The position numbers and the translations under genes are program-made. A stretch of 64,000 bases of DNA from Chloroflexota bacterium (GTDB lineage: Bacteria > Chloroflexota > Dehalococcoidia > Dehalococcoidales > JACPPQ01), in contig JACPPQ010000109.1 in the NCBI GenBank assembly GCA_016190925.1, positions 1,614 through 65,613 on the forward strand. The letters are read 5' to 3'. This document shows, in pieces, positions 10,280 to 48,720 of this stretch (position 1 is its first letter; each line of letters starts with the position of its first letter). Under the pieces are notes generated by a model. That model did not search any database and was not told where the DNA came from. It saw nothing but the letters and a program-made list of their open reading frames with translations.

Positions 10280-10384
10280 CAACTAAGGCGTCTACTCCCG
10301 GCCGAAAGCATATCTTCTGAGTAAGGGGATGCCCTCGGTAAGATTGTCCAGGGCATCCCCTGGAGCAGGGTGAGGTAAGAGCGG

Positions 10385-12347: not shown

Positions 12348-12426
12348 TTATGGTACTGGATGAGTCTGCTGAAAACCTTGAGCTTCGGGTAAAAACATAA
12401 ATTTATTGTAATAAGGAGAACAAACG

Positions 12427-14037
12427 ATGGCATACTACAGGGACTTGAGAGAATACCTTAAAGTCCTGGAATCCAAAGGAAAGCTTGTCAGGATAAACCG
12501 GGAGATAAACAAGGATACCGAGCTTATGCCATTGGTCAGATGGCAATTTCGTGGGCTTCCAGAGGAGCAAAGGAAAGCCTTCATCTTCGATAATGTGAAA
12601 GATGCAAAGGGGAAAAAGTACGATATGCCGGTAGTGGTGGCCGCTCATGCTCCATCCAGAGAGGTCTACGCACTGGCCATGATGTGCGCGCCTGACAAGA
12701 TTATTGAGCGCTGGACGGAGGGCCAGCTTCATCCCATAGAACCTGTAGTGATAGAGAGCGGGCCAGTCCATGAGAATATTCATCAGGGTGACGAGCTTAT
12801 TACATGGGGTGGTCTGGGACACCTCCCGGTACCCATTTCAACGCCAGGATTCGATAACGCTCCTTATTTGACTTGCTCCAACTGGGTAAGCAAAGACCCG
12901 GACACTGGCATAAGGAACATGGGCATTTACCGGGGTATGTTGAAAAGCGCTACCAGGCTGGGGATACAGTGCGACCAGGGTAAGCATCTGCGCATACACT
13001 GGGAAAAGTGCCGGAACAAAGGGATTCCATTGCAGGTTGCGGTAGTTGTCGGGGCGAGCCCTAACCTGGGATTTGTTGGAGCGGCACATATACCGTACGG
13101 TGTGGATGAATTCGCAATCGCCGGTGGCCTCAGCGGAGAACCGATTAAGCTGGTAAAGTGCAAGACGGTGAACATCGAGGTCCCCGCTACGGCAGAGATA
13201 GTCATAGAGGGTGAAATGCCTACGGATTCTATGGAGAAAGAGGGACCCTTCGGAGAGTTCACCGGCTATATGGGAGCCGAGGGGGTCTACCCCTATTTCA
13301 ACGTCAAGTGCATTACGCATCGTAACGATGCAATTTACACGGCCTTTATCAGCCAATTTGCACCGAGCGAGAGCAGCAAGCTGAGGCAAATTTCCCAGGA
13401 AGGTGTCTGGTATAAGCTCCTGAAGCATGACTTGAATAATCCGGGCGTACTGAGATGTGCCTTTCACGAGAACGCCAGCGGGAGTTCCGCTGCCCTCCTT
13501 GTGATACAGCTCAAGAAAGCGCATCCCTTCGATGCATGGCATGCCCTGGACGGGGCGGCTGCCTTCACCCAGAGCTGGCCCAGGATAATAATAGCGGTTG
13601 ACGAAGACATCGACCCGGAGGATGCTGATTCGGTGAACTGGGCGCTCAGCTTCAGGATGGAACCACATAGAGATTTGCGCGTGGTTCAGGGGAAAGCCTA
13701 TAACCTGGACCAGGCGAGCAATCCGCCATGGACACCCCAGGCAGAAAGGTTTTACCCATCGCCGAACGGAAGCTCGGTCTTGTTGATAGATGCCACCAGA
13801 AAGTGGCCGTACCGGCCGGTTTCACTGCCCGCCAGGAAATTCATGGAAAGGGCAAAGCAAATCTGGGAAGAAGAAAAGCTTCCCAGGCTAATCCCACGGT
13901 CTCCCTGGTTTGGCTACTCACTGGGACAGTGGACTGATGAGAACAAGGAAGAGGCCGAGCTGGCCCTTAATGAAGAACACTACCAGACAGGCGAAAAGAT
14001 AGCCAGGCAAAGGACTCAGCTTGGCAACTCTGAATAA
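12427..14037 (+). CDS. UbiD-family decarboxylase/carboxylase, paralog 3 (long C-terminal tail)
   Basis: This 536-aa ORF has an AAGGAG ribosome-binding site. The N-terminus reads MAYYRDLREYLKVLESKGKL, and the motifs GIRNMGIYRGM and EGPFGEFTGYMG are present. Confidence 0.9.
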   Translation: MAYYRDLREYLKVLESKGKLVRINREINKDTELMPLVRWQFRGLPEEQRKAFIFDNVKDAKGKKYDMPVVVAAHAPSREVYALAMMCAPDKIIERWTEGQLHPIEPVVIESGPVHENIHQGDELITWGGLGHLPVPISTPGFDNAPYLTCSNWVSKDPDTGIRNMGIYRGMLKSATRLGIQCDQGKHLRIHWEKCRNKGIPLQVAVVVGASPNLGFVGAAHIPYGVDEFAIAGGLSGEPIKLVKCKTVNIEVPATAEIVIEGEMPTDSMEKEGPFGEFTGYMGAEGVYPYFNVKCITHRNDAIYTAFISQFAPSESSKLRQISQEGVWYKLLKHDLNNPGVLRCAFHENASGSSAALLVIQLKKAHPFDAWHALDGAAAFTQSWPRIIIAVDEDIDPEDADSVNWALSFRMEPHRDLRVVQGKAYNLDQASNPPWTPQAERFYPSPNGSSVLLIDATRKWPYRPVSLPARKFMERAKQIWEEEKLPRLIPRSPWFGYSLGQWTDENKEEAELALNEEHYQTGEKIARQRTQLGNSE

Positions 14038-14076
14038 CCAATAACCTGGACCCGACATTGTAATCCTTAAAATTGA

Positions 14077-14184
14077 TGTAGGCAAAGCAAGGTAGAAAAT
14101 AATAGTATTAGTCTTACATCAACTTACGCCGATGTCTGGTAGATAACGATAGTCAAAGAGATTAGTTTTAAGGTACTAAGCATT
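14077..14184 (+). promoter_or_regulatory. Conserved TGTAGG-box upstream element, copy c
   Basis: The sequence is TGTAGGCAAAGCAAGGTAGAAAATAATAGTATTAGTCTTACATCAACTTACGCCGATGTCTGGTAGATAACGATAGTCAAAGAGATTAGTTTTAAGGTACTAAGCATT. It is collinear with copy b up to the start codon of the next gene. Confidence 0.7.
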
Positions 14185-14256
14185 ATGGACATATCTCATT
14201 CGGATATAACCTGGAGAATATGAGACCCAGGTGCAGACACAGAAAGGAGAAATCGT

Positions 14257-15378
14257 ATGAAAAATGGAATAAAGACAATCTTCATCGTGTGTTTAGGTTT
14301 AATCACCACAGTAGCACTTCTTGCTGGATGTGCCGCACCAGCAACCACCCCTGCTCCCGCGCCTAAACCAGCACCTGCTCCGGCAACAACGGCTGCTCCA
14401 GCGCCGAAGCCTTCGCCCAGTCCGGCTCCCGGGCCAGCAACAGTTTGGACGTTTGCCATCCATAGAGGCACTAATTCTATGGAGCTGGCTTATACGCCAA
14501 ATCCACGCTTCCAGGACATGATAGCAAAAGCAACCGGTGGCCGGCTGAAACTCGATACCAAAGTGGAAATATTTCCGCCCAATGAGGTCATAAACGCGGT
14601 AATTGATGGGCGAATAGACATGGGATTGCAGAGACTGGATTATGTCTCCGGGACCTTCCCTCTTTGGGGTTTTGGCTCTCTTCCATTCTTCTTTTCAAAC
14701 TATCATTACGAATATGAAGCAGCACTAAACGACCCCCGCATGATTCAACTACTGCAGAAAAGCTATGGAGAATCCGGCCTGTTTTATCTATTTGACACTT
14801 CTGGCACCGGAATCGAATCCATTTGGTCCAAAAAGCCTATCGCTACGCTCGACGATCTCAAGGGCGTTAAAGTAAGGGCCTCCGGCTTGCTTACCACAAG
14901 GGCGTTACAGCTTCTGGGTGCGGCACCCTTAACCACAGCCCCGGGAGAAATAGTCGATGCAATGCAAAAGGGACTGGTTGATGCTGTAGCTTCGGGCATG
15001 GGATTCGGTCTCTTCCTGGGGCTGGCCGATGTTTCCAAGTATGTTAATTCCTGGCCGATAACCGAAGTGTTTCCGGGTTCTGTGGTAGTCAACATGAAAA
15101 AATGGAATGCCTTACCCGATGACCTGAAGCAGATAGTAATCAATGTGGCGAAAGAGGTACAGGGGCAGGTAGTTCTTGCTGTTGATGTTGAATGGAGGAA
15201 GACCCTCGCTAGCCTTCAGGCTGCGAAAATGCAGGTCATAATACCTGACAAAGCCCACATACAAAAAGCGAGAGAGCTTACTAAACCTGCAATTGATGAG
15301 TGGGTTAAGTTGGCTGGTCCTTACGCCCCAGAGCTCCTAAGCATTGCTTCGCAATATGCCAGTGGGGCGAAAAAATAG
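14257..15378 (+). CDS. Orphan TRAP-type (DctP-like) substrate-binding lipoprotein
   Basis: This 373-aa ORF has lipobox LLAGC and a Pro/Ala linker. The mature domain contains GGRLKLDTKVEIFPPNE...GRIDMG...GSLPFFF, which is DctP-like. No dctQM genes are adjacent. Confidence 0.75.
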   Translation: MKNGIKTIFIVCLGLITTVALLAGCAAPATTPAPAPKPAPAPATTAAPAPKPSPSPAPGPATVWTFAIHRGTNSMELAYTPNPRFQDMIAKATGGRLKLDTKVEIFPPNEVINAVIDGRIDMGLQRLDYVSGTFPLWGFGSLPFFFSNYHYEYEAALNDPRMIQLLQKSYGESGLFYLFDTSGTGIESIWSKKPIATLDDLKGVKVRASGLLTTRALQLLGAAPLTTAPGEIVDAMQKGLVDAVASGMGFGLFLGLADVSKYVNSWPITEVFPGSVVVNMKKWNALPDDLKQIVINVAKEVQGQVVLAVDVEWRKTLASLQAAKMQVIIPDKAHIQKARELTKPAIDEWVKLAGPYAPELLSIASQYASGAKK

Positions 15379-15391
15379 TGAAAAAGGAAAC

Positions 15392-15457
15392 ACATCAGGC
15401 CGCATCTCGATACCTTGTAAAAAGCAACTTTTCAGGGTGGTTGGTGCGGCCTGATGT
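15392..15457 (+). terminator. 13-bp perfect inverted repeat downstream of the binding-protein gene (possible terminator or processing structure)
   Basis: ACATCAGGCCGCA at 15392..15404 pairs with TGCGGCCTGATGT at 15445..15457, followed by CCATCTTTCC. The 40-nt loop is long for a classical intrinsic terminator. Confidence 0.35.
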
Positions 15458-15742
15458 CCATCTTTCCAAGTTGTCCGGGATAAGTCAAATTAAGCAGGGC
15501 AAATACTGAGAGAGCGGCAGAATTCAATTATGTTTGCTCTCGGCGTTTCTTACCGCTTACCCGCTTCTTCCAAAGGTGTTTAGCTAGAAAAGCTCTCCGG
15601 ATTGATAGCTGTTGGGAGAAATGAGGTTTGAAAAAGAGAAATTCTGGACACGTCCCTGGATTGTTCCCCGTAGAAATCTCCATACTTAAAAGCAAGGGAT
15701 AACTATGAAAAGGATGATGCACCGGCACACGAGGGAGGTACA

Positions 15743-17842
15743 GTGGCATATATAATAGGAATTGATACCGGAGGGACTTTCACGGATATAGTGGTCTTGA
15801 GTGAAGATGATGGAAAAGTCACAACTGACAAAGCTCCATCAACACCAAGGGATTTTTCTATCGGGGTGATAGATGCGGTCGAAAACGCAGCCCGGCAGCT
15901 CGGTATGTCCGGATTCCAACTTCTGAATAATACGGCTATCTTTGCTATTGGCACGACAGTAGCAACTAATATGTTGTTGACACACACGGGTACAAAAACC
16001 GGTCACATCACCACTAAAGGGTTTGAAGATACATTACTCATCGGCAGGGTAAATCAGAAGATAGCCGGGCTGAGTGGTATCGATGTCCTGGACCTGGCCC
16101 GTTTAGACAAAGCAAGGCCTGTTATTCCCAGAAATCTGATTAAAGGGGTGACCGAACGAATTGATTATAAGGGGGAGGTTATTGTCCCGCTGGTTTACCA
16201 GGAGACTGCACAGGTTGTCAGGGACCTGGTCGAAAAAGAACATGTGGAGGCGATTGCCGTTGTTCTCCTGTGGTCATTTATGAATCCAGAGCACGAGCAG
16301 GAAATCAAAAAGATTATCAATCAAATGTACCCGCAAATCTATGTCACCATATCAAGCGAACTGGTGCCCAAAATAAAGGAATATGAAAGAGCCGCTACAA
16401 CGTCAATCAATGCTTACGTAGGGAAAGGCACATCAAGGTATATCTCATCATTGGGAACGAGACTAAAGGAGAATGGCCTCAAGTTGCCTCCTATGATAAT
16501 GCAGAATATGGGCGGCTTTACAACCGCTGACGAAGCATGCAGGAAACCCGTTCTTACCTGCAATTCAGGACCAGCAGGTGGCGTGGTCGGCGCTCAGGCT
16601 CTGGCAAATCTCTTGGGCTATAAAAACATCATAACTACCGATATGGGTGGTACCAGTTTTGACGTAGGACTGGTGGTTAACGGAGTTTCCCAGTTTGCCA
16701 GTCAATTAATACTTGATAAATACGTCACTTTAAATCCAACCATCGATGTAACCTCCATTGGTGCTGGCTCGGGAAGTATTGCCTGGATAGAGCCGGATAC
16801 CGGCCTGTTAAAAGTCGGTCCGCAAAGCGCCGCAGCTGACCCGGGCCCTGTTTGTTATGAAAAAGGGGGGACAGAACCAACGGTAACAGACGCCAATATT
16901 GTGTTAGGCAGGTATCCCGGCCACCTCCTTGGGGGAAAAATCAAACTTAATAAAGAGAAATCATTCTCAGCTATTAAAACAAAGATTGCCGACCCATTAA
17001 AAATGGACGTTGCAACGGCGGCCATCAGCATCATCGATATAGTGGACTCGCACATGGCGGACTTGATAAGAAAGGTCACTGTAGCGAAAGGCTATGACCC
17101 TGGCGATTTTGTCATTTTTTCCTTTGGAGGAGCTGGAGCCGCCCATGTTGGCTCATATGGGTATGTGGGTTCGAAGACAGCAATCATACCTAACTTCGCG
17201 TCAGAATTCTCCGCATTTGGGATATGTTCATCTGATGTTATTCACATTAATGAGCTATCGGAGCCTATGCGATACCCGTTCGGCACGGAACGAATTACTG
17301 CAATTTATCAAGACCTGGAGAACAAGGCGCTTAAAGACTTTCAAGCAGAAGGGTTTAGCCGAGAGAACATACTTTTGACTCGTTTGGTTGATTTAAGGTA
17401 CATCGGCCAAATACAAGAGATGGCAACACGTGTTCCCGCCGGCGATTTGAATCATCAAGACATGGAAAGGGTCATCGATGAATTTGAAGCAGCATATGAA
17501 CTGAAATACGGGAAAGGCTCGGCCTATAAGATAGCGGGAATCGAGGCGACAACGTACCGAGTCCACGGAGTAGGCAAAATAATCAAGCCATCTCCGAAAA
17601 AACGCAGACGAGGTCCCGCTAATTCATCAGCGGCTATAAAAGAGAAACGGGACGTTTATTTCAGAGAATGCGACGGTTTTCGTCTTATCAATGTATATGA
17701 CCGGGGGAAACTACAACCTGGCAATATTGTGGAAGGGCCTGCCATTATAGAGGCGGTTGATACCACAGTGGTCGTTCATCCCGGGCAGACCGTTAAGTTA
17801 GATGGATATTCCAACATGATAATGCAACTGAGTCAGGGGTGA
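15743..17842 (+). CDS. Hydantoinase/oxoprolinase A family subunit (HyuA; acetone/acetophenone carboxylase beta-like)
   Basis: This 699-aa ORF starts with GTG after GAGGGAGG. The N-terminus IGIDTGGTFTD is the hallmark of the HyuA ATPase fold. Confidence 0.9.
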   Translation: MAYIIGIDTGGTFTDIVVLSEDDGKVTTDKAPSTPRDFSIGVIDAVENAARQLGMSGFQLLNNTAIFAIGTTVATNMLLTHTGTKTGHITTKGFEDTLLIGRVNQKIAGLSGIDVLDLARLDKARPVIPRNLIKGVTERIDYKGEVIVPLVYQETAQVVRDLVEKEHVEAIAVVLLWSFMNPEHEQEIKKIINQMYPQIYVTISSELVPKIKEYERAATTSINAYVGKGTSRYISSLGTRLKENGLKLPPMIMQNMGGFTTADEACRKPVLTCNSGPAGGVVGAQALANLLGYKNIITTDMGGTSFDVGLVVNGVSQFASQLILDKYVTLNPTIDVTSIGAGSGSIAWIEPDTGLLKVGPQSAAADPGPVCYEKGGTEPTVTDANIVLGRYPGHLLGGKIKLNKEKSFSAIKTKIADPLKMDVATAAISIIDIVDSHMADLIRKVTVAKGYDPGDFVIFSFGGAGAAHVGSYGYVGSKTAIIPNFASEFSAFGICSSDVIHINELSEPMRYPFGTERITAIYQDLENKALKDFQAEGFSRENILLTRLVDLRYIGQIQEMATRVPAGDLNHQDMERVIDEFEAAYELKYGKGSAYKIAGIEATTYRVHGVGKIIKPSPKKRRRGPANSSAAIKEKRDVYFRECDGFRLINVYDRGKLQPGNIVEGPAIIEAVDTTVVVHPGQTVKLDGYSNMIMQLSQG

Positions 17843-17845
17843 GAA

Positions 17846-19699
17846 ATGCGTACGAAAAACAAAATCGACCCGGTAACCTTCGAGATTCTGAGACATAGGG
17901 TTGGCGCCATTAATGATGAGGGTGCTTCCAGCTTAATGTTAGTTTCGGGGTCACCGGTGGCCAGTGAGGTTCTCGACTTTAATACCGCCTTACTTAATGC
18001 CAAAGGAGAGGTAATCGTCATCGGCCCGTACATTCTGGAGCACGGTATCTCTCTGGAGCAAATTGTAAAGTACATTATCGCTAATTATCAGGATAACCCG
18101 GGAATTAATGAAGGCGACATGTTCTTGTGCAACGACCCGTATGTGGGAGCTCTCCATCAGAATGATGTCGCCCTGGTGGCGCCGATTTACTGGGAGGGGG
18201 AGCTAGTAGGTTGGACGGGGGTTGCGGTGCATCAGCAGGATGTTGGAGGGCCTGGCAAAGGACAGGTAAGCATAGGCGCAACTTCTATTTTTGAAGAGGC
18301 ACCTGTATTCCCACCCATTAAGCTTATAGAGAGAGGAATTATCCGAAAAGACCTTGAAGGAGAGTACTTCAAACGAAGCAGATTACCAGAGCGCCTCGGG
18401 CTGGACTTGAGGGCTATGACTGCTTCAAACAACGTTACGAGCAGACGTATTAGAGAACTTATTAAAGACCGAGGAATAGAAACCGTAAAATCGACATTCG
18501 ATGCCATCATAGATTATGTTGAAGTCAAGTTAAGAAGCAGATTAATGGAACTCCCTGATGGGACCTGGCGCCATACCGCTTACCTGGATTACGGAGACAA
18601 GATTTACCCCTGTAAGTTAACCATGACCAAGAAGAAAGACAAGCTAGTTTTTGACTTTACTGGGACAGCCGCCCAGGCGCCCGCCGTTATTAATTGCACT
18701 TATCCTGTCTTGCAGGCTATTGTCACGGGAGTTTTTATGATGTACCTGGGATACGGCATATTCCCGCCGAGTTCTGGAGCAGCAGGCAGGTGTCTTGAGG
18801 TAGTTTCTGAACCCGGTACGTTTGTCCATGCGATATGGCCAGCAGGTGTGAGTAAGGCGACCACTGGTGCAAGGTATTCCGTAATCGATGCCGGAAGTGT
18901 TTGTTTAGCTAAAATGCTGGCTGCCAGTGACAAGTACCGGGACCGCGTAATGGCTCCGTGGAGGAGCTCATCTATAATAGCGGACTTATTTGGTATCGAC
19001 CAGAGGGGTGCTTACTTTGGGGCCTCAATCCTGGACTTTATGGCGGGTGGCGCCGGTGCAAGGAGCTATAAAGATGGCATCGACACCGGAGGTCAACTGG
19101 GTGCTCCGGCAATCGCCATCGCTAACGTAGAAACGCACGAGTTCCGCTACCCGATGCTTTTTTTGTACCGGAAACAAGAAAGGGATACAGGCGGGCCTGG
19201 CAAATTCAGGGGAGGAGTGGCACTGGGGTATATGTGGATGCCCCATGACGTAGAGGAAATCTCCAATGCGGTTATTCACGCCATCGGTCTGCAATCGCCC
19301 AATGGTGTAGGTATTTATGGAGGTTATCCCAGCAGTACCCATGTAGTCTCCCTCAAAAGAAATACCAATATACTGGATATCTTCAGGGATGGGAAGCTAC
19401 CGGCAAGCCTGGATGAAATTGACGGCAAATTTGAGATACCTCCTCAACTTGTAGAAACATCTCTTAAGAAGAACGACATAATTGTGGGCCTGGGACAGGG
19501 GGGAGGTGGCTATGGAGACCCAATCGAGCGCGATGCCAGGTTAGTTGCCAACGATGTAACGAATGAGTTAGTTTCCAGAGAATGTGCCAGGGATATTTAT
19601 GGGGTAGTGCTCGACCCTCAAACACTCCAGCCAGACATAAAACAGACTGAGGAACGGAGGCTTGAAATAAAGAGGGAAAGGGCGGGGTGGCAAAAGTAG
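17846..19699 (+). CDS. Hydantoinase B/oxoprolinase family subunit (HyuB; carboxylase alpha-like)
   Basis: This 617-aa ORF starts 3 nt after HyuA. The N-terminus DPVTFEILRHRVGAINDEG is typical of HyuB. Confidence 0.9.
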   Translation: MRTKNKIDPVTFEILRHRVGAINDEGASSLMLVSGSPVASEVLDFNTALLNAKGEVIVIGPYILEHGISLEQIVKYIIANYQDNPGINEGDMFLCNDPYVGALHQNDVALVAPIYWEGELVGWTGVAVHQQDVGGPGKGQVSIGATSIFEEAPVFPPIKLIERGIIRKDLEGEYFKRSRLPERLGLDLRAMTASNNVTSRRIRELIKDRGIETVKSTFDAIIDYVEVKLRSRLMELPDGTWRHTAYLDYGDKIYPCKLTMTKKKDKLVFDFTGTAAQAPAVINCTYPVLQAIVTGVFMMYLGYGIFPPSSGAAGRCLEVVSEPGTFVHAIWPAGVSKATTGARYSVIDAGSVCLAKMLAASDKYRDRVMAPWRSSSIIADLFGIDQRGAYFGASILDFMAGGAGARSYKDGIDTGGQLGAPAIAIANVETHEFRYPMLFLYRKQERDTGGPGKFRGGVALGYMWMPHDVEEISNAVIHAIGLQSPNGVGIYGGYPSSTHVVSLKRNTNILDIFRDGKLPASLDEIDGKFEIPPQLVETSLKKNDIIVGLGQGGGGYGDPIERDARLVANDVTNELVSRECARDIYGVVLDPQTLQPDIKQTEERRLEIKRERAGWQK

Positions 19700-19723
19700 C
19701 TGAATTGTTCAGGAGGCATAAAA

Positions 19724-20005
19724 ATGCAGAGGGTCAATGAATACCTGGAAATTGTTGAAGAAGCTGGGGAAAAAGCCTTCCGCTGCAAATGTGGCTATAT
19801 ACTCGGTCCAGCGACTGATAACTACAAAACGTACGCTCTTAAATGCGAGTCCCCGCTTAAAAAAGCCGGCCCTAATGTGAATCCGTATAAAGTGGGTGGA
19901 GAAAAGTTTGTTTTCAGGGAGTTTTGCTGCCCCGGTTGTTATACTTTGCTTGGTACCGATATTGCATTAAGGGGAGAACCTCTTTTGCGGGATGTGGAAT
20001 TGTAA
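19724..20005 (+). CDS. Small Zn-ribbon protein resembling the acetone carboxylase gamma subunit
   Basis: This 93-aa ORF carries the Cys pairs CKCG and CCPGC. Its position directly after HyuA/HyuB matches the three-subunit carboxylase layout. It is shorter than a canonical gamma subunit. Confidence 0.55.
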   Translation: MQRVNEYLEIVEEAGEKAFRCKCGYILGPATDNYKTYALKCESPLKKAGPNVNPYKVGGEKFVFREFCCPGCYTLLGTDIALRGEPLLRDVEL

Positions 20006-20062
20006 GTCGTCCCTGACTGAGTGTTTTGGTTTGTTTACCTTGAGGGTTAAGGAGGCGTGTTA

Positions 20063-20707
20063 ATGGTAGATTACGCAATACGCCCTGAAAAGACTGCCTT
20101 GATTCTATTTGACATGGTAAACGAGTTTATAAAGCCGGGCGCGCCGCGTGAGAATCCTGAAATCAGGGAAAAATTAGTCCCAAAACTAAGGAAACTGATA
20201 ACGGTATGCCGTACCAGTGATATTCCGGTCATTTATACTAACCATTGCCACCGCGCGGACGGAAGCGACCTGGGAGTTTTGGAAGACATTTATAAATGGT
20301 GGCGGAAAGTAAGGCCCGGGAAAGTGGCGCCGCTCATAGAAGGAACACCGGGAACAGAGGTCTATCATGAAATCGCGCCTCAAAAAGGCGATATCATAGT
20401 CAAAAAGCACAGGTTCAGCGCTTTCTGCGGCACAGACCTGGATATGATTTTGAGACATAAGGGCATAGACACAATCATACTTACCGGAGCTACGACCAAT
20501 ATCGGCCCGGAAACCACGGTGCGCGATGCCACCGTGAGAGATTACAAGGTAATTTTTCCCAGCGATGGTAATCTTTCAAGAGACCTGCCTGACATGGGAT
20601 GGGGGCCGGTGACCAAAGAGGAAATCGATAAAGTGGCATTGAGCACCATGCAGTACTGTTTTGCTCGGGTATTGACAATCGAAGAGTTGATTTCGGAGCT
20701 GTCATAG
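20063..20707 (+). CDS. Isochorismatase-fold protein lacking the nucleophilic Cys (Gly at that position)
   Basis: The track ORF starts at GTG 20057, but the ATG at 20063 has better spacing from AGGAGG. The D and K of the fold are present (ILFDM, VKKHRFSAF). The segment GATTNIGPETTVRDA aligns with G-x-x-T-x-x-C-V and places G where the Cys should be. Confidence 0.7.
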   Translation: MVDYAIRPEKTALILFDMVNEFIKPGAPRENPEIREKLVPKLRKLITVCRTSDIPVIYTNHCHRADGSDLGVLEDIYKWWRKVRPGKVAPLIEGTPGTEVYHEIAPQKGDIIVKKHRFSAFCGTDLDMILRHKGIDTIILTGATTNIGPETTVRDATVRDYKVIFPSDGNLSRDLPDMGWGPVTKEEIDKVALSTMQYCFARVLTIEELISELS

Positions 20708-20709
20708 AC

Positions 20710-22146
20710 GTGGGCACGGAATACAGGGACTTGAGGGAATGGCTCTCGAAAGTCGAGGAAATTGGAGAGCTCAGGCGGGGCAAATCCCTTACCGTAGAAG
20801 AAGACGCCGGCAGGGTAGCGGAGATATTGCCCGCCCTGGAAAACGGACCGGCGGTTATTCTGGATGAGTTAGTAGGGTACGAGCCCGGTTACCGAATCCT
20901 GCTTAATCTCTTCGGCAGCACTCGCAGGATAGCCCTGTCATTTGGATTTCCTATTGACTCGGATAGAAAATCGCTGCTTCAGCACTTTGAAAAGAAACTC
21001 GAAAAGATCGAGCTTATAAAACCAGCCTATGTCGAAACAGGCCCCATATTAGAAAACCGGCTGGTAGGGGATGATGTGAATCTTGACCGGTTTCCTGTTC
21101 CTCTGTGGCATAAGCACGATGGAGGTCCCTACATTGGAACAGGATGCGCGGTGGTTACGCAAGACCCTGACGACGGTTGGGTTAATTTGGGGACCTACAG
21201 AAACCAGCTCTTCGATAAGAAAACGGTGGGATTCTATATCACTTCGGCGGGGCAGGGAAGGGTTCATCGGGAAAAGTACTTCAGTCGCGGAAAACCATGC
21301 CCGGTGGCCGTTGTTTTCGGGATGGACCCTTTGCTATTTACCGGGGGTATGACTGACATTCCTCCAGGCATCTGTGAATATGATTGGGTCGGAGGTTGGC
21401 AAGGCAGGCCGGTGCAGGTTATCAAGGGACCTGTAACCGGTCTTCCGGTTCCTGCTAATGCTGAAATTGTAATCGAAGGTTTCTCTTATCCGGGAAAAAA
21501 CCGGCTCGAAGGCCCTTTCGGTGAGTCGAGGGGATATTATGCATCAGGCGCAAGCGAAGCACCTTACATCGAAGCTCAGGCCCTTTACTTCAGGAATGAA
21601 CCTATTCTTCTGGGAATGCCGTCCCAAAAACCGCCCTACGATGCAGACAAAGCTAGGCAGTATATGAAATCTGCGCTACTGAAACAACAGTTGAAGCAGT
21701 TCGGTATCCCGGGAATAACGGATGTATGGTGCTATGGAGAAGGTAGCTGCAGGCTTTTTGTGGTAGTCGCTATAAAGCAGCAGTATCCCGGACATTCCCG
21801 ACAGGCAGGTCATGCGGTTTATGCCAGCCGCGTAATCACTTACGGGCGCTATGTAATAGTGGTCGATGACGATATCGATGTTGCCGATATCAAAGATGTG
21901 CTGTGGGCTATTACAACCCGTTCTAGCCCGGCAACCTCGGTAGACATCATACACAAAGCGAGGTCATTTCAGTTAGACCCGCTAATCTCGCCTGAGGACC
22001 GGGCGGCAGGCCGATATTATGATTCTCGCGCCATCATCGATGCCACAAAGCCATTCGAATGGAAAGACCAGTTTCCTTTACCCGTACAGACAGACCAGGA
22101 GTACAGGCGGGAAACCAGAAAAAAGTTTGATTATCTTTTTAAATAG
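20710..22146 (+). CDS. UbiD-family decarboxylase/carboxylase, paralog 4
   Basis: This 478-aa ORF has a GTG start 2 nt after the previous stop. The motifs DDGWVNLGTYRNQ and EGPFGESRGYYASG are present. It is a close paralog of 59000..60439. Confidence 0.9.
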   Translation: MGTEYRDLREWLSKVEEIGELRRGKSLTVEEDAGRVAEILPALENGPAVILDELVGYEPGYRILLNLFGSTRRIALSFGFPIDSDRKSLLQHFEKKLEKIELIKPAYVETGPILENRLVGDDVNLDRFPVPLWHKHDGGPYIGTGCAVVTQDPDDGWVNLGTYRNQLFDKKTVGFYITSAGQGRVHREKYFSRGKPCPVAVVFGMDPLLFTGGMTDIPPGICEYDWVGGWQGRPVQVIKGPVTGLPVPANAEIVIEGFSYPGKNRLEGPFGESRGYYASGASEAPYIEAQALYFRNEPILLGMPSQKPPYDADKARQYMKSALLKQQLKQFGIPGITDVWCYGEGSCRLFVVVAIKQQYPGHSRQAGHAVYASRVITYGRYVIVVDDDIDVADIKDVLWAITTRSSPATSVDIIHKARSFQLDPLISPEDRAAGRYYDSRAIIDATKPFEWKDQFPLPVQTDQEYRRETRKKFDYLFK

Positions 22147-22167
22147 AAGAAGGAGGAAACATAGAAA

Positions 22168-22950
22168 ATGGTTAATGTGAAGATATTGGGGATTTCGACC
22201 AGTGTCCGGCATGCTAATACCGAGATTGCCGTCAAGTGGGCAATGGAATCGGCGGCTGAATTGCCGGGAGTGGAGACTGAATTCGTATCGTTGGCAGGAA
22301 AGACCATATATCCCTGTAACAACTGCTATCGGTGTCTGAATTCCGAGGCGGATAACCCCTGCCCTGCCTATGACGATGATTTTAGGGAAATATGTCTCAA
22401 GATGATAGAACCAGATGGGATTATTGTAGGAGCTAATGTTGATTTTCAGACGGCTGGCGTGCTCTTTCACATTTTTAAGTCAAGGCTGATGTCTCTGGAA
22501 ATGAACAGAAAAGTTGGGCCTGAGGCTCTCCGGAACAAGGTATTTGGCTGTATTGCCGTGGGTGGCTCCCCTTATAACGGTATCAACACCGCACAACAAT
22601 ATATGATAATGTGGGCAATACAGAATGATATGCACGTGGTTGGCTGCGGCCCTGATAAAGGCATTACCTGTGGAGGCTTCCTTGGAGCGGGTGGGGCAAC
22701 TTTCCTCGTTAAAGGTTGTGCCAGAATATTCCGGGGGCGCGGGCCGCTCCTGCCCAACACGCCAGCAGAAAAGGAGGCCATAAAAGAGGATGAGGCGTGC
22801 TTCCTCCAGTGCCAGGCCCTGGGTAAAAGGGTCGCAGAAACAGCCAAGGTGATAAAGGCAGGCTTTGATACGGTACCGCCAGAGGAGATGCACTGGCAGA
22901 AGGGTCCGGTTAAGATTGGAGGATACGACTTCGGGCAGAAACAACGCTAA
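22168..22950 (+). CDS. Isf-like iron-sulfur flavoprotein (NADPH-dependent FMN reductase fold), paralog 1
   Basis: This 260-aa ORF begins KILGISTSVRHANTE, a flavodoxin-like start. It carries the Cys motif CNNCYRC-x8-C. The C-terminal block GKRVAETAKVIKAGF is shared with 30116..30913 and 48721..49506. Confidence 0.6.
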   Translation: MVNVKILGISTSVRHANTEIAVKWAMESAAELPGVETEFVSLAGKTIYPCNNCYRCLNSEADNPCPAYDDDFREICLKMIEPDGIIVGANVDFQTAGVLFHIFKSRLMSLEMNRKVGPEALRNKVFGCIAVGGSPYNGINTAQQYMIMWAIQNDMHVVGCGPDKGITCGGFLGAGGATFLVKGCARIFRGRGPLLPNTPAEKEAIKEDEACFLQCQALGKRVAETAKVIKAGFDTVPPEEMHWQKGPVKIGGYDFGQKQR

Positions 22951-22991
22951 TGGGCAGACTATTAAACCACTAAAAGAGGAGGCCTAGTAAA

Positions 22992-23669
22992 TTGCCTGTA
23001 TGGGACGATGTCATCACTGAACGAGATAAACTGGTCTACAATGCCGCAGGCTTCGGCCAGAAAAGAATTGGGTTCGGCCAGAAACCTGCGCTCATTATAA
23101 TCGACGTCACATATGCGTTCGTTGGAGATAAACCGGAGCCTATCATGGAATCAATCAAACGCTTTCCCAACAGTTGTGGAGAAGAAGGTTGGGCAGCGGT
23201 CCGCCAGATTGCTTCTCTGCTGCCGGTAGTAAGAGAGAAAAACATACCCGTAATCTATACTGCCTCGGATACCGTGCAAAAGCCCTCGGCTTGGACAAGC
23301 TGGAAGAGCTCCCGTATGAAAGAGGAAAACAGGGTTGCGACGAATCAGATTGTGCGGGAGATATCGCCCTCCGCCAATGATATTTTAGTTTACAAATCTC
23401 GTGCCAGCATTTTTTATGGCACGCCGTTGCTGAGCATACTCATCTCTCTCCGTGCGGACACATTGCTTGTGTGTGGTTGCACCACCAGTGGCTGCGTCCG
23501 GGCCAGTGCTATCGATGCCTGGTCCAGTAACTTTAAGGTAGCAGTCATTGAAGAATGTGTTTTTGACCGGGCACAAACGAGCCACAAGATAAACCTCTTT
23601 GACATGAATGCCAAGTACGCTGATGTTGTCTCCGTTTCTGATATAAAGGAATATATCGCCAAGTTGTAA
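22992..23669 (+). CDS. Isochorismatase-family cysteine hydrolase (amidase-type)
   Basis: This 225-aa ORF has a TTG start 9 nt after GAGGAGG. The full D-K-C set is present (IIIDVT, VYKSRAS, VCGCTTSGCVRASAIDA). Confidence 0.75.
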   Translation: MPVWDDVITERDKLVYNAAGFGQKRIGFGQKPALIIIDVTYAFVGDKPEPIMESIKRFPNSCGEEGWAAVRQIASLLPVVREKNIPVIYTASDTVQKPSAWTSWKSSRMKEENRVATNQIVREISPSANDILVYKSRASIFYGTPLLSILISLRADTLLVCGCTTSGCVRASAIDAWSSNFKVAVIEECVFDRAQTSHKINLFDMNAKYADVVSVSDIKEYIAKL

Positions 23670-23719
23670 CAAATGAGGCTGGCAGTAACCGGTCGGAAGC
23701 CCTGAAGGAGAAATGAGAA

Positions 23720-24469
23720 ATGAAATATGATGAATTTCTCGGGCTTTTGAAGTATAGGCGAAGCATAAGAGTATTCAAACCGGAGCCGATTCCCGATGAA
23801 TATGTCATGAAAATACTGGACGCGGCCCATTATGCGATGTCCGGAGCTAACTCTCAACCCTGGGAGTTTCTGGTGGTCGAAGACCGACGGAACAGAGAAA
23901 AGCTCTATCAAGCCTATCTCAAGGACTTCGATATGATTTACCATCTGGAACAGCAGCGCACGCCGAAGTACAAACACCCAGCGTTCAAAATGCGGGTTGA
24001 CGATAGAGATGAGGCCATAGGGAAGTTTGCGAACTGGAAAGATGCGCCGGTGTATATATGCGTGCTTGAAGACCCGAGAAAAATGTTCGGCTCGGTGCTT
24101 GCCGCTCGGTCTGATTTTTGCGCCGCCAGTCATAGCATCCTGGCTACCACTATGGGTCACCTGTCAATGACCATACAACTGGCTGTGGCCTCGCTTGGAC
24201 TGGGTTCACAGCGCGTTGACGTTTTTGTCCAGGAACCATACAGGCAAATCCTCGGGTATCCCGAGCCCTTGCGTCTGAATATCATAGTCCCGGTTGGTTA
24301 CAGAACACTTGAGCCGGGGCCTCCGCACCGCCTGCCGTTGGAGGCGCTGGTACATTTTGAAAGATACGATATGAAAAAATATGTGCGCAGCGAGGACTTC
24401 CTGAAATATCTCGGTAAGATAAGAAAACGCGGAAAACGGCACGGAAGTCCTCCCGCTTCCAACAAGTAG
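23720..24469 (+). CDS. Nitroreductase-family flavoprotein
   Basis: This 249-aa ORF contains RRSIRVFKPEPIPDE and SGANSQPWEFLVV, which are hallmark nitroreductase motifs. Confidence 0.8.
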   Translation: MKYDEFLGLLKYRRSIRVFKPEPIPDEYVMKILDAAHYAMSGANSQPWEFLVVEDRRNREKLYQAYLKDFDMIYHLEQQRTPKYKHPAFKMRVDDRDEAIGKFANWKDAPVYICVLEDPRKMFGSVLAARSDFCAASHSILATTMGHLSMTIQLAVASLGLGSQRVDVFVQEPYRQILGYPEPLRLNIIVPVGYRTLEPGPPHRLPLEALVHFERYDMKKYVRSEDFLKYLGKIRKRGKRHGSPPASNK

Positions 24470-24489: not shown

Positions 24490-25677
24490 CTATTCCCTGC
24501 GACCAAAGATGCCGATTGCGGAAGTAAATGCCCCCGGCCAGCCGCCGATATTATGGACCAGCCCCACTTTGGCATTTTTAACCTGCCTGGGCCCGGCCTT
24601 GCCGCGAAGCTGCTGGCAAATCTCGAAGACCATTCTCAGGCCGCTAGCGCCGATGGGGTGGCCGAAAGATTTGAGTCCGCCATCGGGATTAGCGGGCAGG
24701 CCACCACTCAATTCAAAGAAACCGGAGTTTATGTCCTCGATGGCCTTGCCCCTGGCGCTGAATCCCAGGTCTTCATAGGTCAGCAGCTCGTTTATGGTAA
24801 AGCAATCGTGCAATTCAGCAACGTCTATCTGCTCGCGCGGAGCGGTTATCCCGGCCTCCGCATATGCCAGTTTAGCAGCGGCCAGGTTCTCTTTCCAATG
24901 CGTCCAATTGTAATCAGGGGAAATCTGGGCGTATTCATCGCCGCATGCTACACCCAGTCCTTTAATCAGTATGTAATCGTCGCGGTATTTCTCGGCTATT
25001 TCCGGACGTGTAATGACAGCCGCAGCGGCACCATCGCTCACACCACAACAATCGAAAACCCCCAGGGGCTTGGCAATGATTGGAGAATTAAGTACCACCT
25101 CCAGAGTGACCTCCTGGCGAATGTGCGCTCTAGAGTTTAGAGTCCCGTTATGATGGTTCTTAACTGCAATTTTTGCCATCGCCCTCTTGCCTTCCATGGG
25201 GTCTATTCCGTAGTGATAGAAGTACCTGTTAGCCATTAAGGCAAACTGGGACGGCATCGGCGTAGCCGGCCTCGTGTGGCTCAGTGCCACATCGGGATAT
25301 GAAGGCGGAGAGACCGGGAGGCCGGAAAAACCGTAGTCCTTCAGCTTCTCAACCCCAACGGCCAGGGCTACATCGTACGCTCCTGAAGCTACCGCGTAGG
25401 CGGCATTGCGCAAGGCGTCCGTTCCGGTGGCGCAGGCATTTTCCAGCCGGCTGATTGGAATATCTGGAATATGTAATGGAATCAGTCCTGTCCCCCGATG
25501 ATAGCCATAGCCTGTCCCAATCCACGCTGCCTGGATTTTATCGGGTGATATCTTCGCATCCTCGAACGCTTCATAACAGGAATCGACCACTAGGTCGTAG
25601 AAGCTTTTCTCCCACAGCTCACCAAACCTGGTGCAGCCCGCTCCGATGACGGCAACTTTATCTTTAATACCTTCCAT
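24490..25677 (-). CDS. SCP-x / DUF35-associated type thiolase
   Basis: This 395-aa ORF contains NACATG (nucleophilic Cys) and GHPIGASG. Its start is coupled to the stop of the upstream DUF35 fusion gene (TAG-A-ATG). Confidence 0.85.
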   Translation of the reverse strand: MEGIKDKVAVIGAGCTRFGELWEKSFYDLVVDSCYEAFEDAKISPDKIQAAWIGTGYGYHRGTGLIPLHIPDIPISRLENACATGTDALRNAAYAVASGAYDVALAVGVEKLKDYGFSGLPVSPPSYPDVALSHTRPATPMPSQFALMANRYFYHYGIDPMEGKRAMAKIAVKNHHNGTLNSRAHIRQEVTLEVVLNSPIIAKPLGVFDCCGVSDGAAAAVITRPEIAEKYRDDYILIKGLGVACGDEYAQISPDYNWTHWKENLAAAKLAYAEAGITAPREQIDVAELHDCFTINELLTYEDLGFSARGKAIEDINSGFFELSGGLPANPDGGLKSFGHPIGASGLRMVFEICQQLRGKAGPRQVKNAKVGLVHNIGGWPGAFTSAIGIFGRRE

Positions 25678-25678
25678 T

Positions 25679-27088
25679 CTAGCTTACCTCCGAGAACCTG
25701 ACAGGCATGCATTTCCAGGCGTAATTGTGGATACCTTCAGATGTAAACAGTTTTCTAAAAGTCATCTCTACGGGCATTCCGATTTCCACCTGCTTGTCGC
25801 CCCTATCGGTCATATAGGCCCACATCCTTCCGCCGCCTTCGAAGTCAATCACAGCCAGAACCATCGGTGGGTCAGGATTGGGTGTAGCGTAGTCTTCGGT
25901 GTAGGTAGTCAAAGTCGCCCTCCTGCCGCCGAAACGGTAAGTCTCGTTCTGGTCTTTGGCGTGGCAATTGTAGCATATCCGTTGGGCCGGGTACTGCACC
26001 ATGCCGCAGCTTTTGCATCTGCCACCGTGGAGACGGAGAGTCTCTTCTCTCTCTCGCCAGAGGCAGGTAACGGAAGGACTCGGCGTTGGCGGGCGGCGGC
26101 GACCGGTCACCATCTCCACCAGCCCTCTCCAGTTGAGATATTTGAGATAGTCTTTTGATACCATTTTCGATGAGACGCAGGCTGAAAATGGCGGGCTGAC
26201 GTTAACCGCCTTCGCCGACTCGAGAAGGAACACATCGGCTCCATTGCCGTAAGCACCGAGGAGGAGCTTATCCCCGGGTCTGGCTTTTTCAACAGCCGCC
26301 GTTAGCATCATCAGACTGGAAGCTGTTCCTGTATCGCCGACTGTGCCAAACATGGGGGCTTGCACCTGCTCGGCAGCGAGTCCTAGCCTCTTCCCCATCT
26401 CGCTATGGCGCCTGGCATTGGGCCCATTAAAAACAGACCTGGAGAAATCTTTGACGGACAGTCCATTGCGCTCCGCCAGGCGCGAGATAGCCCTGGGCAG
26501 CACCCTGAAATAGCCTTCGTCAAGGTTAAATCTCTCCTCCCACGAGCGTATGTATTTATCCTCGTCGCTCCGCCAGATATCATGTATTTCGTCCGCAAGG
26601 GAGAAGCTATCCCTGATTGCCACGCTAATATCCGTAGAACTGACCAGGAGAGCGGCAGCGCCATCGCCAAACTCCCTTTCGAAGTCAGAACCAGGCATGG
26701 GCAGACGCATATCGGAGGCAACTACCAGTACCTGTTTTGCCGCCCCAGCCTTAACGGCGTTCGCCGCCGCGGTCAGAGCCGTTGTACCAGCCCTCAAAGA
26801 AGTGGAAAAATCGGCGGTTAGAATATCGTCGCGAAGGTCGAGCGCGGTGGCGGCCGTCACCGATACCTGTTTCTCGCGGTAGGGGAAGGTAGTGGAGGCA
26901 AAGAAGAGTCCGTCCACCGTGTTGCGGTCTATGCCTCTCAGGCAATTCGTACCGGCAGCCACGCCCATGGTCAGGCTGTCTTCGTCGAAGTTGGCGATTG
27001 CCTTCTCACCACGCAGGCCGGCCTTGATACTACCCAGGTCGAGTCGCCATTGTGGTACATAGACACCGCAGGCCCTGATGCCCACCAT
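25679..27088 (-). CDS. HMG-CoA synthase/KAS-III-like domain fused to a DUF35 Zn-ribbon/OB-fold domain; catalytic residues apparently absent
   Basis: This 469-aa ORF has an N-terminal part that aligns by eye with archaeal HMGCS. It reads ASTTFPY where I expect GSESHPY, TSLRAGT where I expect FACKAGT, and VFNGPN where I expect VFHQPN. The C-terminus has CKSCG...CYNCH plus an OB-fold-like tail (DUF35). Confidence 0.7.
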   Translation of the reverse strand: MVGIRACGVYVPQWRLDLGSIKAGLRGEKAIANFDEDSLTMGVAAGTNCLRGIDRNTVDGLFFASTTFPYREKQVSVTAATALDLRDDILTADFSTSLRAGTTALTAAANAVKAGAAKQVLVVASDMRLPMPGSDFEREFGDGAAALLVSSTDISVAIRDSFSLADEIHDIWRSDEDKYIRSWEERFNLDEGYFRVLPRAISRLAERNGLSVKDFSRSVFNGPNARRHSEMGKRLGLAAEQVQAPMFGTVGDTGTASSLMMLTAAVEKARPGDKLLLGAYGNGADVFLLESAKAVNVSPPFSACVSSKMVSKDYLKYLNWRGLVEMVTGRRRPPTPSPSVTCLWREREETLRLHGGRCKSCGMVQYPAQRICYNCHAKDQNETYRFGGRRATLTTYTEDYATPNPDPPMVLAVIDFEGGGRMWAYMTDRGDKQVEIGMPVEMTFRKLFTSEGIHNYAWKCMPVRFSEVS

Positions 27089-30913: not shown

Positions 30914-30938
30914 CCGTCAAAATAAAGAAAGGAGAGAA

Positions 30939-35471: not shown

Positions 35472-35480
35472 GTTAAGCAT

Positions 35481-39224: not shown

Positions 39225-39256
39225 TTGGTTGCCTGAACACACAAAGAGAGGTGACT

Positions 39257-40267: not shown

Positions 40268-40288
40268 GAAGCGAGTGGGGTTTGAAGT

Positions 40289-40561: not shown

Positions 40562-40591
40562 CCTAATCCGATATGAATCGAGGAACCGTTT

Positions 40592-42294: not shown

Positions 42295-42303
42295 CAGTGA
42301 GGA

Positions 42304-43461: not shown

Positions 43462-43476
43462 GGAGGTCGAATAGAA

Positions 43477-45288: not shown

Positions 45289-45310
45289 TAGTCAACCGAG
45301 GAGTGCAGAA

Positions 45311-46345: not shown

Positions 46346-46347
46346 AC

Positions 46348-48228: not shown

Positions 48229-48231
48229 AAC

Positions 48232-48690: not shown

Positions 48691-48720
48691 CGTAAATCAT
48701 AGTAAAATAGGAGGGGTCAT

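Follow-up and report, generated by a model that had tools for sequence, protein, structure and literature searches.

A HyuA-HyuB-gamma, isochorismatase-fold and UbiD gene core in anaerobic Chloroflexota and its possible role in heteroaromatic carboxylate catabolism

ATP-dependent enzymes of the HyuA/HyuB type are known from caprolactamase (CapAB; 6YRA) and N-methylhydantoinase (NMHase; 7HK5), which consist of a two-subunit core without a gamma subunit, and from acetophenone carboxylase (Apc; 5L9W) and acetone carboxylase (Acx; 5SVB/5M45), in which a four-cysteine gamma subunit is present. The partner of NMHase is N-carbamoylsarcosine amidase. Among the UbiD enzymes, which use prenylated flavin mononucleotide (prFMN), PhdA, the phenazine-1-carboxylate decarboxylase of Mycolicibacterium fortuitum (7PDA), and HmfF both act on heteroaromatic acids. 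Here we describe a stretch of 64,000 nucleotides (nt; hereafter the window) from an uncultured Chloroflexota bacterium of the Dehalococcoidales (assembly GCA_016190925.1, contig JACPPQ010000109.1, positions 1,614 to 65,613), in which a putative eight-gene operon at 15743-24469 places a HyuA/HyuB/gamma enzyme (HyuABgamma) beside a UbiD protein (UbiD-4), two isochorismatase-fold proteins (Iso1 and Iso2) and two flavoproteins.

We favour, with a probability of roughly 45%, a reading in which the core of this operon is a catabolic module for imported heteroaromatic, most likely N-heterocyclic, carboxylates, in which prFMN-dependent decarboxylation comes first and ATP then drives the opening of a ring amide. 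As part of this reading, the eight genes would constitute one transcription unit containing a five-protein core conserved in anaerobic Chloroflexota: HyuA, HyuB, gamma, Iso1 and UbiD. An earlier note on this DNA had proposed a pathway for a heteroaromatic or phenolic carboxylate, an idea that has since gained strength. UbiD-4 is nearest to PhdA (354 bits, against at most 186 for any other solved relative) and a second conserved UbiD, encoded upstream, is nearest to HmfF, which suggests heteroaromatic acids as the UbiD substrates. We share the view taken there that the substrate itself cannot be deduced from sequence.

The operon and its conserved core

All eight open reading frames (ORFs) are intact and on the + strand, with lengths of 699, 617, 93, 216, 478, 260, 225 and 249 amino acids (aa) at 15743-17842, 17846-19699, 19724-20005, 20057-20707, 20710-22146, 22168-22950, 22992-23669 and 23720-24469, and every Pfam family assigned to them scores above its gathering threshold. 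With the longest-ORF starts, the intergenic gaps measure 3, 24, 51, 2, 21, 41 and 50 nt. Gene 4 probably starts at ATG 20063 rather than at 20057, since both Shine-Dalgarno spacing and ortholog N-termini favour that codon, giving a 57-nt gap. GGAGG-type Shine-Dalgarno sequences precede most of the genes, and translation may be coupled across the gaps of 2-3 nt. The layout as first described, eight same-strand genes of the named families separated by 2-57 nt, was thus confirmed by ORFs, Shine-Dalgarno sites and Pfam. Two of the products have identical counterparts (100%) in a Chloroflexota metagenome-assembled genome (MAG): HyuB in MBI2831881.1 and UbiD-4 in MBI2831884.1.

Consensus scans returned 19 promoter-like matches (15.3 +/- 3.9 expected from shuffled sequence) and 14 terminator-like matches (12.9 +/- 3.5 expected), none of them in an operon gap. 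As these counts match those of shuffled sequence, the scans neither support nor split the operon; an internal promoter or terminator, which would have spoken against the earlier note, was not seen above chance. The unit nevertheless appears well delimited, because a hairpin and a DctP-to-hyuA spacing of 364 nt lie upstream and a convergent thiolase gene, ending 20 nt past gene 8, lies downstream. The hairpin (15386-15467, + strand) directly follows the DctP stop codon, contains a 13-nt perfect inverted repeat and is unusually stable, with a minimum free energy of -41.9 kcal/mol (z -6.2; 0/200 shuffles fold as well). It is probably the 5' boundary of the eight-gene transcription unit, and may serve as a terminator or as an RNA-processing or stabilising element. 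An Rfam search over the whole window found no riboswitch or RNA leader above gathering score. The unit probably reaches further upstream to the second UbiD and the transporter genes, so that the eight genes would not represent its full extent as originally supposed.

We surveyed gene neighbours by profile searches over 83 non-redundant loci, binned by HyuB identity, and found that they appear stepwise: gamma from ~33% identity, the isochorismatase-fold protein from ~42% and UbiD from ~53%. At identities of at least 53%, all 8 loci carry gamma, 4 an isochorismatase-fold neighbour and 6 a UbiD; at 42-53% (18 loci) the corresponding counts are 13, 14 and 2. Gamma is found in 23 of the 25 loci at 33-42%, a bin with a single isochorismatase-fold neighbour and no UbiD, and in one of the 32 loci below 33%, where the other two neighbours are both absent.

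The HyuB proteins most akin to that of the window (53-63% identity) were recovered from metagenomes, groundwater among them, and from MAGs of Dehalococcoidia/Chloroflexota. The order HyuA-HyuB-gamma-Iso-UbiD is the same in three loci (L001, L002 and L003) and is found as variants in three more (L006, L007 and L011), while L012 holds HyuA, HyuB-gamma and two UbiDs with no isochorismatase-fold neighbour. Gamma is fused to HyuB in some of the variant loci, and in some a small TPR protein precedes Iso. The core is rearranged in L008, together with a CN_hydrolase and a CoA ligase, and a 60% identical HyuABgamma in L004 has neither Iso nor UbiD as a neighbour. Co-occurrence of all eight genes, which the earlier note had put forward for testing, was therefore borne out in part: HyuA-HyuB-gamma-Iso1-UbiD recurs, whereas only the window has the FMN_red-type flavoprotein, Iso2 and the nitroreductase-family gene, apart from single weak echoes in L001 and L008. 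Since these last three genes are not conserved, the conserved unit is the five-gene core with the second UbiD and binding proteins, not the set of eight. Our literature search returned no paper linking UbiD with hydantoinase, or hydantoinase B with isochorismatase.

In the wider clade, a Cohnella locus (L026, in the 42-53% bin) carries a RutR/YcdC-type TetR regulator, an ABC system with an NMT1 binding protein, a cysteine-type isochorismatase and an M20 amidohydrolase. Two Amidohydro_1 genes lie near HyuABgamma-Iso in a Rhodospirillales MAG (L016), and a luciferase-like monooxygenase gene does so in Binatia (L017). Like the CN_hydrolase of L008, these neighbours fit the handling of ring amides and of amide or carbamoyl products, not ketone carboxylation.

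Several other arrangements were observed at these loci. The TPR protein (~205 aa) is a conserved feature between HyuB-gamma and the Gly-type Iso gene in the fused-gamma subclade (L007 12350-12964, L010 3333-3944, L011 4666-5289). A GIDA/FAD_oxidored-type flavoprotein of ~430 aa, with no window counterpart, stands immediately beside HyuABgamma in L001 (6413-7705), L003 (1632-2924) and L004 (12224-13543), upstream in two of these loci and downstream in one. Within L016 (409-14595), two tandem gamma/Iso/HyuB/HyuA sets accompany the two Amidohydro_1 genes and an NMT1 binding protein.

Proteins of the core

HyuA (699 aa; 15743-17842, + strand) matches the Pfam families Hydant_A_N, Hydantoinase_A and Hydant_A_C (269, 145 and 113 bits), and retains the ATP motifs defined for such subunits (DxGGTxTD, DxGGT and GxxPGP; PMC8453981) as D8-TGGTFTD, D300-MGGT and ADPGP365. 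Its solved relatives score nearly equally (ApcC 408, CapA 399, NMHase 395 and Acx-beta 359 bits), and its NCBIfam scores are below cut-off for both CapA (558 against 1000) and ApcC (452 against 1500). HyuB (617 aa; 17846-19699, + strand; Pfam Hydantoinase_B, 369 bits) carries the metal tetrad Asp44-His104-Asp107-His129, which is invariant in the HyuB alignment and aligns with Asp65/His123/Asp126/His148 of Apc and Asp41/His99/Asp102/His124 of CapB. Compared with the Acx metal site, as the earlier note had suggested, the Asp-His-Asp-His site is intact but the gate residue is Asp44, as in Apc and Cap, where Acx has Glu89. Among solved relatives HyuB scores best with ApcD (200 bits, followed by 163, 156 and 140), the Acx alpha subunit aligning in two fragments only (140 bits in total). 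ApcD is also the best NCBIfam model (217 against a cut-off of 1500; CapB 207 against 1000); no acetone-carboxylase family was matched in this NCBIfam scan, and all equivalog cut-offs were missed widely.

In a neighbour-joining (NJ) tree of 99 HyuB sequences, the window protein falls together with every gamma-bearing locus on the side of ApcD, with CapB and NMHase-B on the opposite side; as the tree has no bootstrap, this placement is moderate evidence only. It addresses the question of phylogenetic placement raised in the earlier note, at 25-27% identity to characterised HyuB proteins. A housekeeping oxoprolinase was considered and rejected: HyuA and HyuB do not group with oxoprolinase-type enzymes in NCBIfam, among solved relatives or in the NJ tree, so this possible objection to the original proposal falls away.

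Gamma (93 aa; 19724-20005, + strand) matches Acetone_carb_G (PF08882; 41 bits, E 2.4e-10). Its Cys21, Cys23, Cys69 and Cys72 are kept across free and HyuB-fused gamma domains of a large clade and are the counterparts of the Zn-site cysteines Cys22/25/75/78 of Apc-gamma (PMC5214803). By the published length criteria for hydantoinase, Acx and Apc (PMC5214803), HyuA at 699 aa and HyuB at 617 aa are hydantoinase-like and not Acx- or Apc-like: HyuB-type subunits measure ~684 aa in Apc and ~776 aa in Acx, and gamma is shorter than that of either enzyme, Acx gamma having ~50 extra N-terminal residues (PMC5214803). Neither a second HyuA-type gene nor an epsilon gene is present among the eight ORFs, as classified by Pfam. 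From these features HyuABgamma is a hybrid, with an Acx-like gene order and a gamma subunit but hydantoinase-like lengths, an Asp gate and no alpha-prime or epsilon subunit. Chloroflexi hyuABC genes have been named acetone carboxylase in earlier genome papers (PMC3971608, PMC4959651), a label that the present evidence does not support; a true acetone carboxylase was rejected from subunit sizes, gate residue and hidden Markov model scores. Gene context lends support to ATP-coupled cyclic-amide hydrolysis as the candidate activity.

UbiD-4 (478 aa; 20710-22146, + strand; Pfam UbiD_N, UbiD and UbiD_C) is a predicted prFMN decarboxylase of a PhdA-like group. It passes TIGR00148 (291 bits, cut-off 245) and aligns over its full length with PhdA at 40% identity, keeping the motifs N159-LGTY-R164 and E267-GPFG-E272 (Glu-x5-Glu) found there. 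Binding of metal and prFMN by the Asn, and a catalytic role for the Arg/Glu/Glu residues, are known from Fdc1 and UbiD. Despite the shared motifs, 40% identity is too low for substrate transfer, and UbiD-4 differs from PhdA in coming from an anaerobe, in its operon context and in having no adjacent UbiX. The second, HmfF-like UbiD (536 aa; 12427-14037, + strand) has HmfF (6h6x) as its best solved relative at 188 bits and also keeps the catalytic motifs; its orthologs (56-58% identity) adjoin HyuABgamma in L006, L012 and L013. Altogether the window holds five UbiD paralogs within 64 kb, at 5451-6917 (-), 12427-14037 (+), 20710-22146 (+), 59000-60439 (-) and 61411-62844 (+), which span at least four subgroups: one PpcA-like, one HmfF-like, two PhdA-like (sharing 68% identity) and one generic.

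The closest relatives of UbiD-4 occur in varied company. One ortholog (L088, 68% identity) lies directly behind two Mo hydroxylases of the xanthine-dehydrogenase type, enzymes that make ring lactams from N-heteroaromatics. Another (L090, 67% identity) is found with a TctC gene near a fused HyuA-HyuB-gamma; in this locus (10121-14455) the three subunits form one protein of 1444 aa, 675 nt downstream of the UbiD-4 ortholog and TctC. Further relatives accompany a CoA ligase, an Amidohydro_2 protein and UbiX (L091), BcrAD-type ATPases and a VdcCD-like pair (L173), or stand in an archaeal UbiD cluster (L174). Deduction of the substrate from these five contexts was attempted and abandoned, as all of them differ. 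The UbiD slot of the module seems to be exchangeable within a loose PhdA-like group.

Iso1 (20057-20707, likely from ATG 20063, + strand; Pfam Isochorismatase, 134 bits) has the triad Asp19-Lys117-Gly150, in which Gly150 aligns with the catalytic Cys of 3irv, 3eef and 3hb7, and on this basis it is not a thiol amidase. EntB and YecD are known Asp-Lys-Gly members (PMC12553813). Iso1 has this triad in common with EntB, PhzD and YecD, yet it is nearer to the 3irv-type 'CC' cysteine hydrolases (137 bits) than to EntB (59) or PhzD (35); its sequence places it in the 3irv-type 'Cys-Cys' subfamily, so that the Gly state is an independent loss within that subfamily. All Iso1 orthologs linked to HyuABgamma have Gly at the nucleophile site, followed by Cys or Pro (N[VI]GC or GP), while metagenomic members of the subfamily at 45-52% identity keep Cys and do not stand beside HyuAB. 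Gly is present in 14, and Cys in 44, of the 61 nearest cluster representatives (50% identity). Across the wider HyuAB-linked clade, some isochorismatase-fold partners keep Cys and others have lost it independently.

In HyuAB-linked isochorismatase-fold neighbours of six loci (L015, L017, L018, L019, L021 and L056), RAV, RSV, HGV, WGV or WAV replaces xCV; these lineages are Binatia, deltaproteobacterial and Limnocylindrales, making nucleophile loss recurrent among HyuAB-linked members. When co-occurrence was approached from the Iso1 side, over 80 loci from JGI metagenomes, nearly all of the loci proved to be Cys-Cys relatives without a HyuAB link. The only close Iso1 relatives among them, L093 and L104, lie on short contigs with uninformative flanks: L093 carries the Gly motif, and the L104 contig ends before that position. 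A new His-x-His metal site in Iso1 was considered and rejected, as the same motif is present in Cys-type relatives.

Iso2 (225 aa, TTG start; 22992-23669, + strand; Pfam Isochorismatase) has an intact triad, Asp38-Lys135-Cys168, within GCTTSGCVRA aligned to 26st. This N-carbamoylsarcosine amidohydrolase is its best solved relative (108 bits), followed by 4l07, 3ot4 and 1nba, of which 4l07 and 3ot4 are presumably maleamate amidases. Iso2 is thus predicted to be a cysteine amidohydrolase resembling N-carbamoylsarcosine amidase. The 'amide or vinyl-ether hydrolysis' first proposed for the operon accordingly divides between one Asp-Lys-Gly protein, Iso1, and one Asp-Lys-Cys protein, Iso2.

Proposed pathway and competing explanations

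In the favoured scheme, carboxylates would enter the cell through the adjacent tripartite tricarboxylate transporter (TTT) and tripartite ATP-independent periplasmic (TRAP) binding-protein systems. UbiD-4, and probably the HmfF-like UbiD at 12427-14037, would strip ring carboxyl groups by prFMN chemistry. HyuA would use ATP to phosphorylate a ring carbonyl present as lactim or enol, and the activated intermediate would pass to the HyuB metal site, where water would open the ring amide as in caprolactamase and NMHase. Iso1 may then protonate and hydrolyse the enamine/enol-type product by isochorismatase-like acid catalysis, or may be a non-catalytic partner, and Iso2 would remove a terminal amide or carbamoyl group in this genome. 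The two flavoproteins could reduce a ring or side-chain C=C bond or carbonyl. We count in favour of this scheme the recurrence of the core and its graded neighbours, the likeness of the UbiDs to PhdA and HmfF, the Mo hydroxylases ahead of the L088 ortholog of UbiD-4, the amide and N-heterocycle enzymes near wider-clade relatives, the likeness of Iso2 to N-carbamoylsarcosine amidase, the FMN_red paralog beside a dihydropyrimidinase-like gene, the hydantoinase-like lengths of HyuA and HyuB, and the flanking transporters.

Comparison with described systems shows both what is shared and where the window departs. With CapAB and NMHase, the enzyme has in common the two-subunit core, ATP motifs, Asp-His-Asp-His site and similar lengths, as well as the pairing with an isochorismatase-fold hydrolase, represented by Iso2. 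Those lactamases and hydantoinases lack gamma, whereas the window enzyme has a Zn-ribbon gamma; moreover, its scores fall well short of the CapA and CapB cut-offs, CapB and NMHase-B stand opposite HyuB in the NJ tree, the conserved partner Iso1 has Gly for the catalytic Cys, and UbiDs form part of the module. Apc and Acx have the four-Cys gamma, the acx-like A-B-gamma order and, in ApcD, the nearest characterised HyuB, but they differ by the low identity, the missing alpha-prime and epsilon subunits, a much longer HyuB and gamma, the cut-offs that the window proteins miss, the Glu gate of Acx, and a neighbourhood that in the window clade is of the amide/N-heterocycle type, not that of ketone metabolism. 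The Rut pathway (RutA-G, RutR) overlaps at superfamily level in its isochorismatase-fold (RutB) and nitroreductase-family (RutE) proteins and in flavin reductase function (RutF), and wider-clade loci add a RutR/YcdC-type TetR regulator and a RutA-family luciferase-like monooxygenase. However, the two isochorismatase-fold proteins reach 64 and 37 bits against 378 for RutB, the nitroreductase-family protein reaches 27 against 152 for RutE, RutA, RutC, RutD and RutG are missing from the window, and the proposed ring opening is ATP-dependent where that of Rut is O2-dependent. By these sequence comparisons, all parts belong to known superfamilies, and the proteins fall outside the defining tests for Acx, Apc, caprolactamase, phenylphosphate carboxylase, BluB and RutE.

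A number of observations weigh against the ring-opening scheme. We infer from sequence the step order, the direction of the UbiD reaction, the substrate classes and what the three accessory genes do. No member of the HyuABgamma clade, the Gly-type Iso1 clade or the UbiD-4 subclade is characterised, and the 25-27% identity of HyuB to any characterised enzyme is low. The ApcD-side position of HyuB favours carboxylase-type chemistry, and gamma has been reported only from ketone carboxylases (PMC5214803, PMC4959651). An amidase working on the opened ring would require a nucleophile, which Iso1 lacks. UbiD-4 is not an ortholog of the UbiDs in other HyuAB clusters, to which it has just 39-44% identity, and its relatives at 60-72% identity, including the paralog at 59000-60439, stand in five different contexts. 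With their many UbiD paralogs (five in the window), these genomes raise the odds of a fortuitous UbiD adjacency. No UbiX was found among the window ORFs scanned.

That HyuABgamma is instead an ATP-dependent carboxylase of the acetone/acetophenone type, phosphorylating an enolisable ketone or hydroxy-heteroarene and adding bicarbonate-derived CO2 while the UbiDs and hydrolases serve other steps of the same or a neighbouring pathway, seems unlikely to us, though it is a live competitor. The Zn-ribbon gamma, the gene order, the affinity of HyuB to ApcD in solved structures, NCBIfam and the NJ tree, the name given to Chloroflexi hyuABC in PMC3971608 and PMC4959651, and the convergent thiolase/HMG-CoA-synthase pair downstream would all suit such an enzyme. 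They are set against the widely failed equivalog cut-offs, the short HyuB and gamma, the gate Asp, the absence of alpha-prime and epsilon from the operon, and recurrent partners (amidase-fold proteins, amidohydrolases, and genes for transport and regulation of N-compounds) that ketone carboxylation does not need. Less probable still is that the genes make up no single pathway, being co-transcribed or merely adjacent in a UbiD-rich island with each product acting on a different scavenged substrate. A window with five UbiDs, three FMN_red paralogs, three aldehyde:ferredoxin oxidoreductases (AFORs) and many binding proteins is compatible with such an island, as are the heterogeneous contexts of the closest UbiD-4 relatives, the poor conservation of the last three genes and the L004 HyuABgamma with neither Iso nor UbiD. 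Yet in L001, L007, L011 and the window a same-strand UbiD comes right after Iso1 or at most two genes later, the association is clade-specific and graded with HyuB identity, the Cys-to-Gly change is found in all HyuABgamma-linked Iso1 orthologs, close Cys-type relatives (45-52% identity) have no HyuAB link, and the 2-3 nt gaps suggest coupling.

A bolder version of the ring-opening idea, which we regard as improbable, holds that the core genes, together with the HmfF-like UbiD, provide an oxygen-independent opening of aromatic-like N-heterocyclic rings by a route not recognised before. The UbiDs would then decarboxylate a pyridone-, pyrimidine- or quinolone-type acid (orotate- or hydroxynicotinate-like), ATP-driven phosphorylation of the ring lactam would replace the O2-dependent cleavage of RutA-type or dioxygenase pathways, and the Asp-Lys-Gly protein would hydrolyse the enamine or ureido-acrylate-type product; if this were true, the gamma subunit would not be a marker of carboxylases. 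We see only a slim chance of a system like phenylphosphate synthase/carboxylase, in which HyuABgamma would make an enol or aryl phosphate that two UbiDs carboxylate with release of phosphate, Iso1 taking an accessory hydrolase-fold role like the phosphatase-like subunit of phenylphosphate carboxylase. Two different UbiD paralogs do recur beside HyuABgamma, Iso1 lacks a thiol nucleophile, the top NCBIfam match of UbiD-4 is phenylphosphate carboxylase beta, and phosphoenol or phosphoimidate intermediates are described for the family of hydantoinases and ketone carboxylases (PMC5214803). That match (TIGR02724), however, was rejected as an identity, since its 291 bits fall short of the cut-off of 469 and equal the score of the generic UbiD model. 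The clear closest solved relative, PhdA, is a decarboxylase, known members of the family keep their phosphorylated intermediate within the HyuA-HyuB tunnel (PMC8453981), and the carboxylate-type transporters that flank the cluster suggest acids as input rather than product.

The module is conserved, and the decarboxylation and ring-opening pathway that we favour would correct a common annotation. The gamma-bearing branch described here is large and uncharacterised, with hydantoinase-like sizes and amidase/N-heterocycle neighbours; should it hydrolyse rings, the presence of gamma would cease to justify the annotation 'acetone carboxylase' in Chloroflexota. Conserved coupling to prFMN decarboxylases suggests how abundant subsurface Chloroflexota/Dehalococcoidia may use heteroaromatic acids without oxygen, and the repeated loss of Cys from the isochorismatase-fold partner hints at a new activity, or at a structural role, for this fold.

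Accessory flavoproteins and the surrounding window

The gene following UbiD-4 encodes a flavodoxin-like FMN reductase (260 aa; 22168-22950, + strand; Pfam FMN_red) with a Cys cluster, C50-X2-C53-X2-C56-X8-C65, whose C50, C56 and C65 do not vary among 36 homologs. Its family is small, with 72 homologs found. Iron-sulfur flavoproteins (Isf) combine the FMN_red fold with a compact four-Cys motif near the N-terminus that binds a [4Fe-4S] cluster. The earlier description of this protein as 'Isf-like' draws on the CX2CX2CX8C motif, and FMN_red is matched; the AlphaFold2 model (predicted local distance difference test score 92.5) best matches PnpB/WrbA quinone reductases and the flavone reductase 7d38 in Foldseek, with no Isf in the top 50. 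The last gene encodes a nitroreductase-superfamily flavoprotein (249 aa; 23720-24469, + strand; Pfam Nitroreductase, 92 bits), whose solved relatives are generic (4dn2, NOX, BluB and IYD) and which fits no defined subfamily. Identification as BluB (70 bits, cut-off 150) or as RutE (PRK05365, 27 bits, cut-off 152) was rejected. A role of the two flavoproteins as helpers in prFMN maturation was also considered; nothing speaks for or against it, and UbiX was not seen among the nearby genes.

A paralog of the FMN_red protein (61% identical; 30116-30913) lies 6 kb from the operon, directly before a dihydropyrimidinase/D-hydantoinase-like amidohydrolase (30828-32471), the two ORF calls overlapping. 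This amidohydrolase scores 219 bits on TIGR02033, below the cut-off of 393. This second pairing of a flavoprotein with a ring amidohydrolase adjoins a MEDS-PAS histidine kinase with a LuxR regulator (27420-29697).

From 9095 to 24469 all genes lie on the + strand: a TctC/TctA/TctB tripartite carboxylate transporter (9095-12347; Pfam TctC, TctA and TctB), the 536-aa UbiD, a TRAP-type solute-binding protein of the DctP family (14257-15378; Pfam DctP, 123 bits) and the operon. The AFORs of the 64-kb window are of the tungsten type, and several TRAP systems are present in addition; from its gene content, the window is that of an anaerobe scavenging organic acids. Convergent on the operon (24490-27088, - strand) are a thiolase (PRK06157, 519 bits, above cut-off) and then an HMG-CoA-synthase-like protein fused to a DUF35-type Zn-ribbon/OB domain, an archaeal-type arrangement with two of its parts fused. 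Further downstream, a long + strand cluster (33876-52116) encodes methylmalonyl-CoA-mutase-type subunits, one of them fused to a glyoxalase/epimerase domain, together with a CoA ligase, a class-III aminotransferase, two 2,4-diaminopentanoate-dehydrogenase-like proteins, FAD oxidoreductases, the three AFORs with ferredoxins and the third FMN_red paralog.

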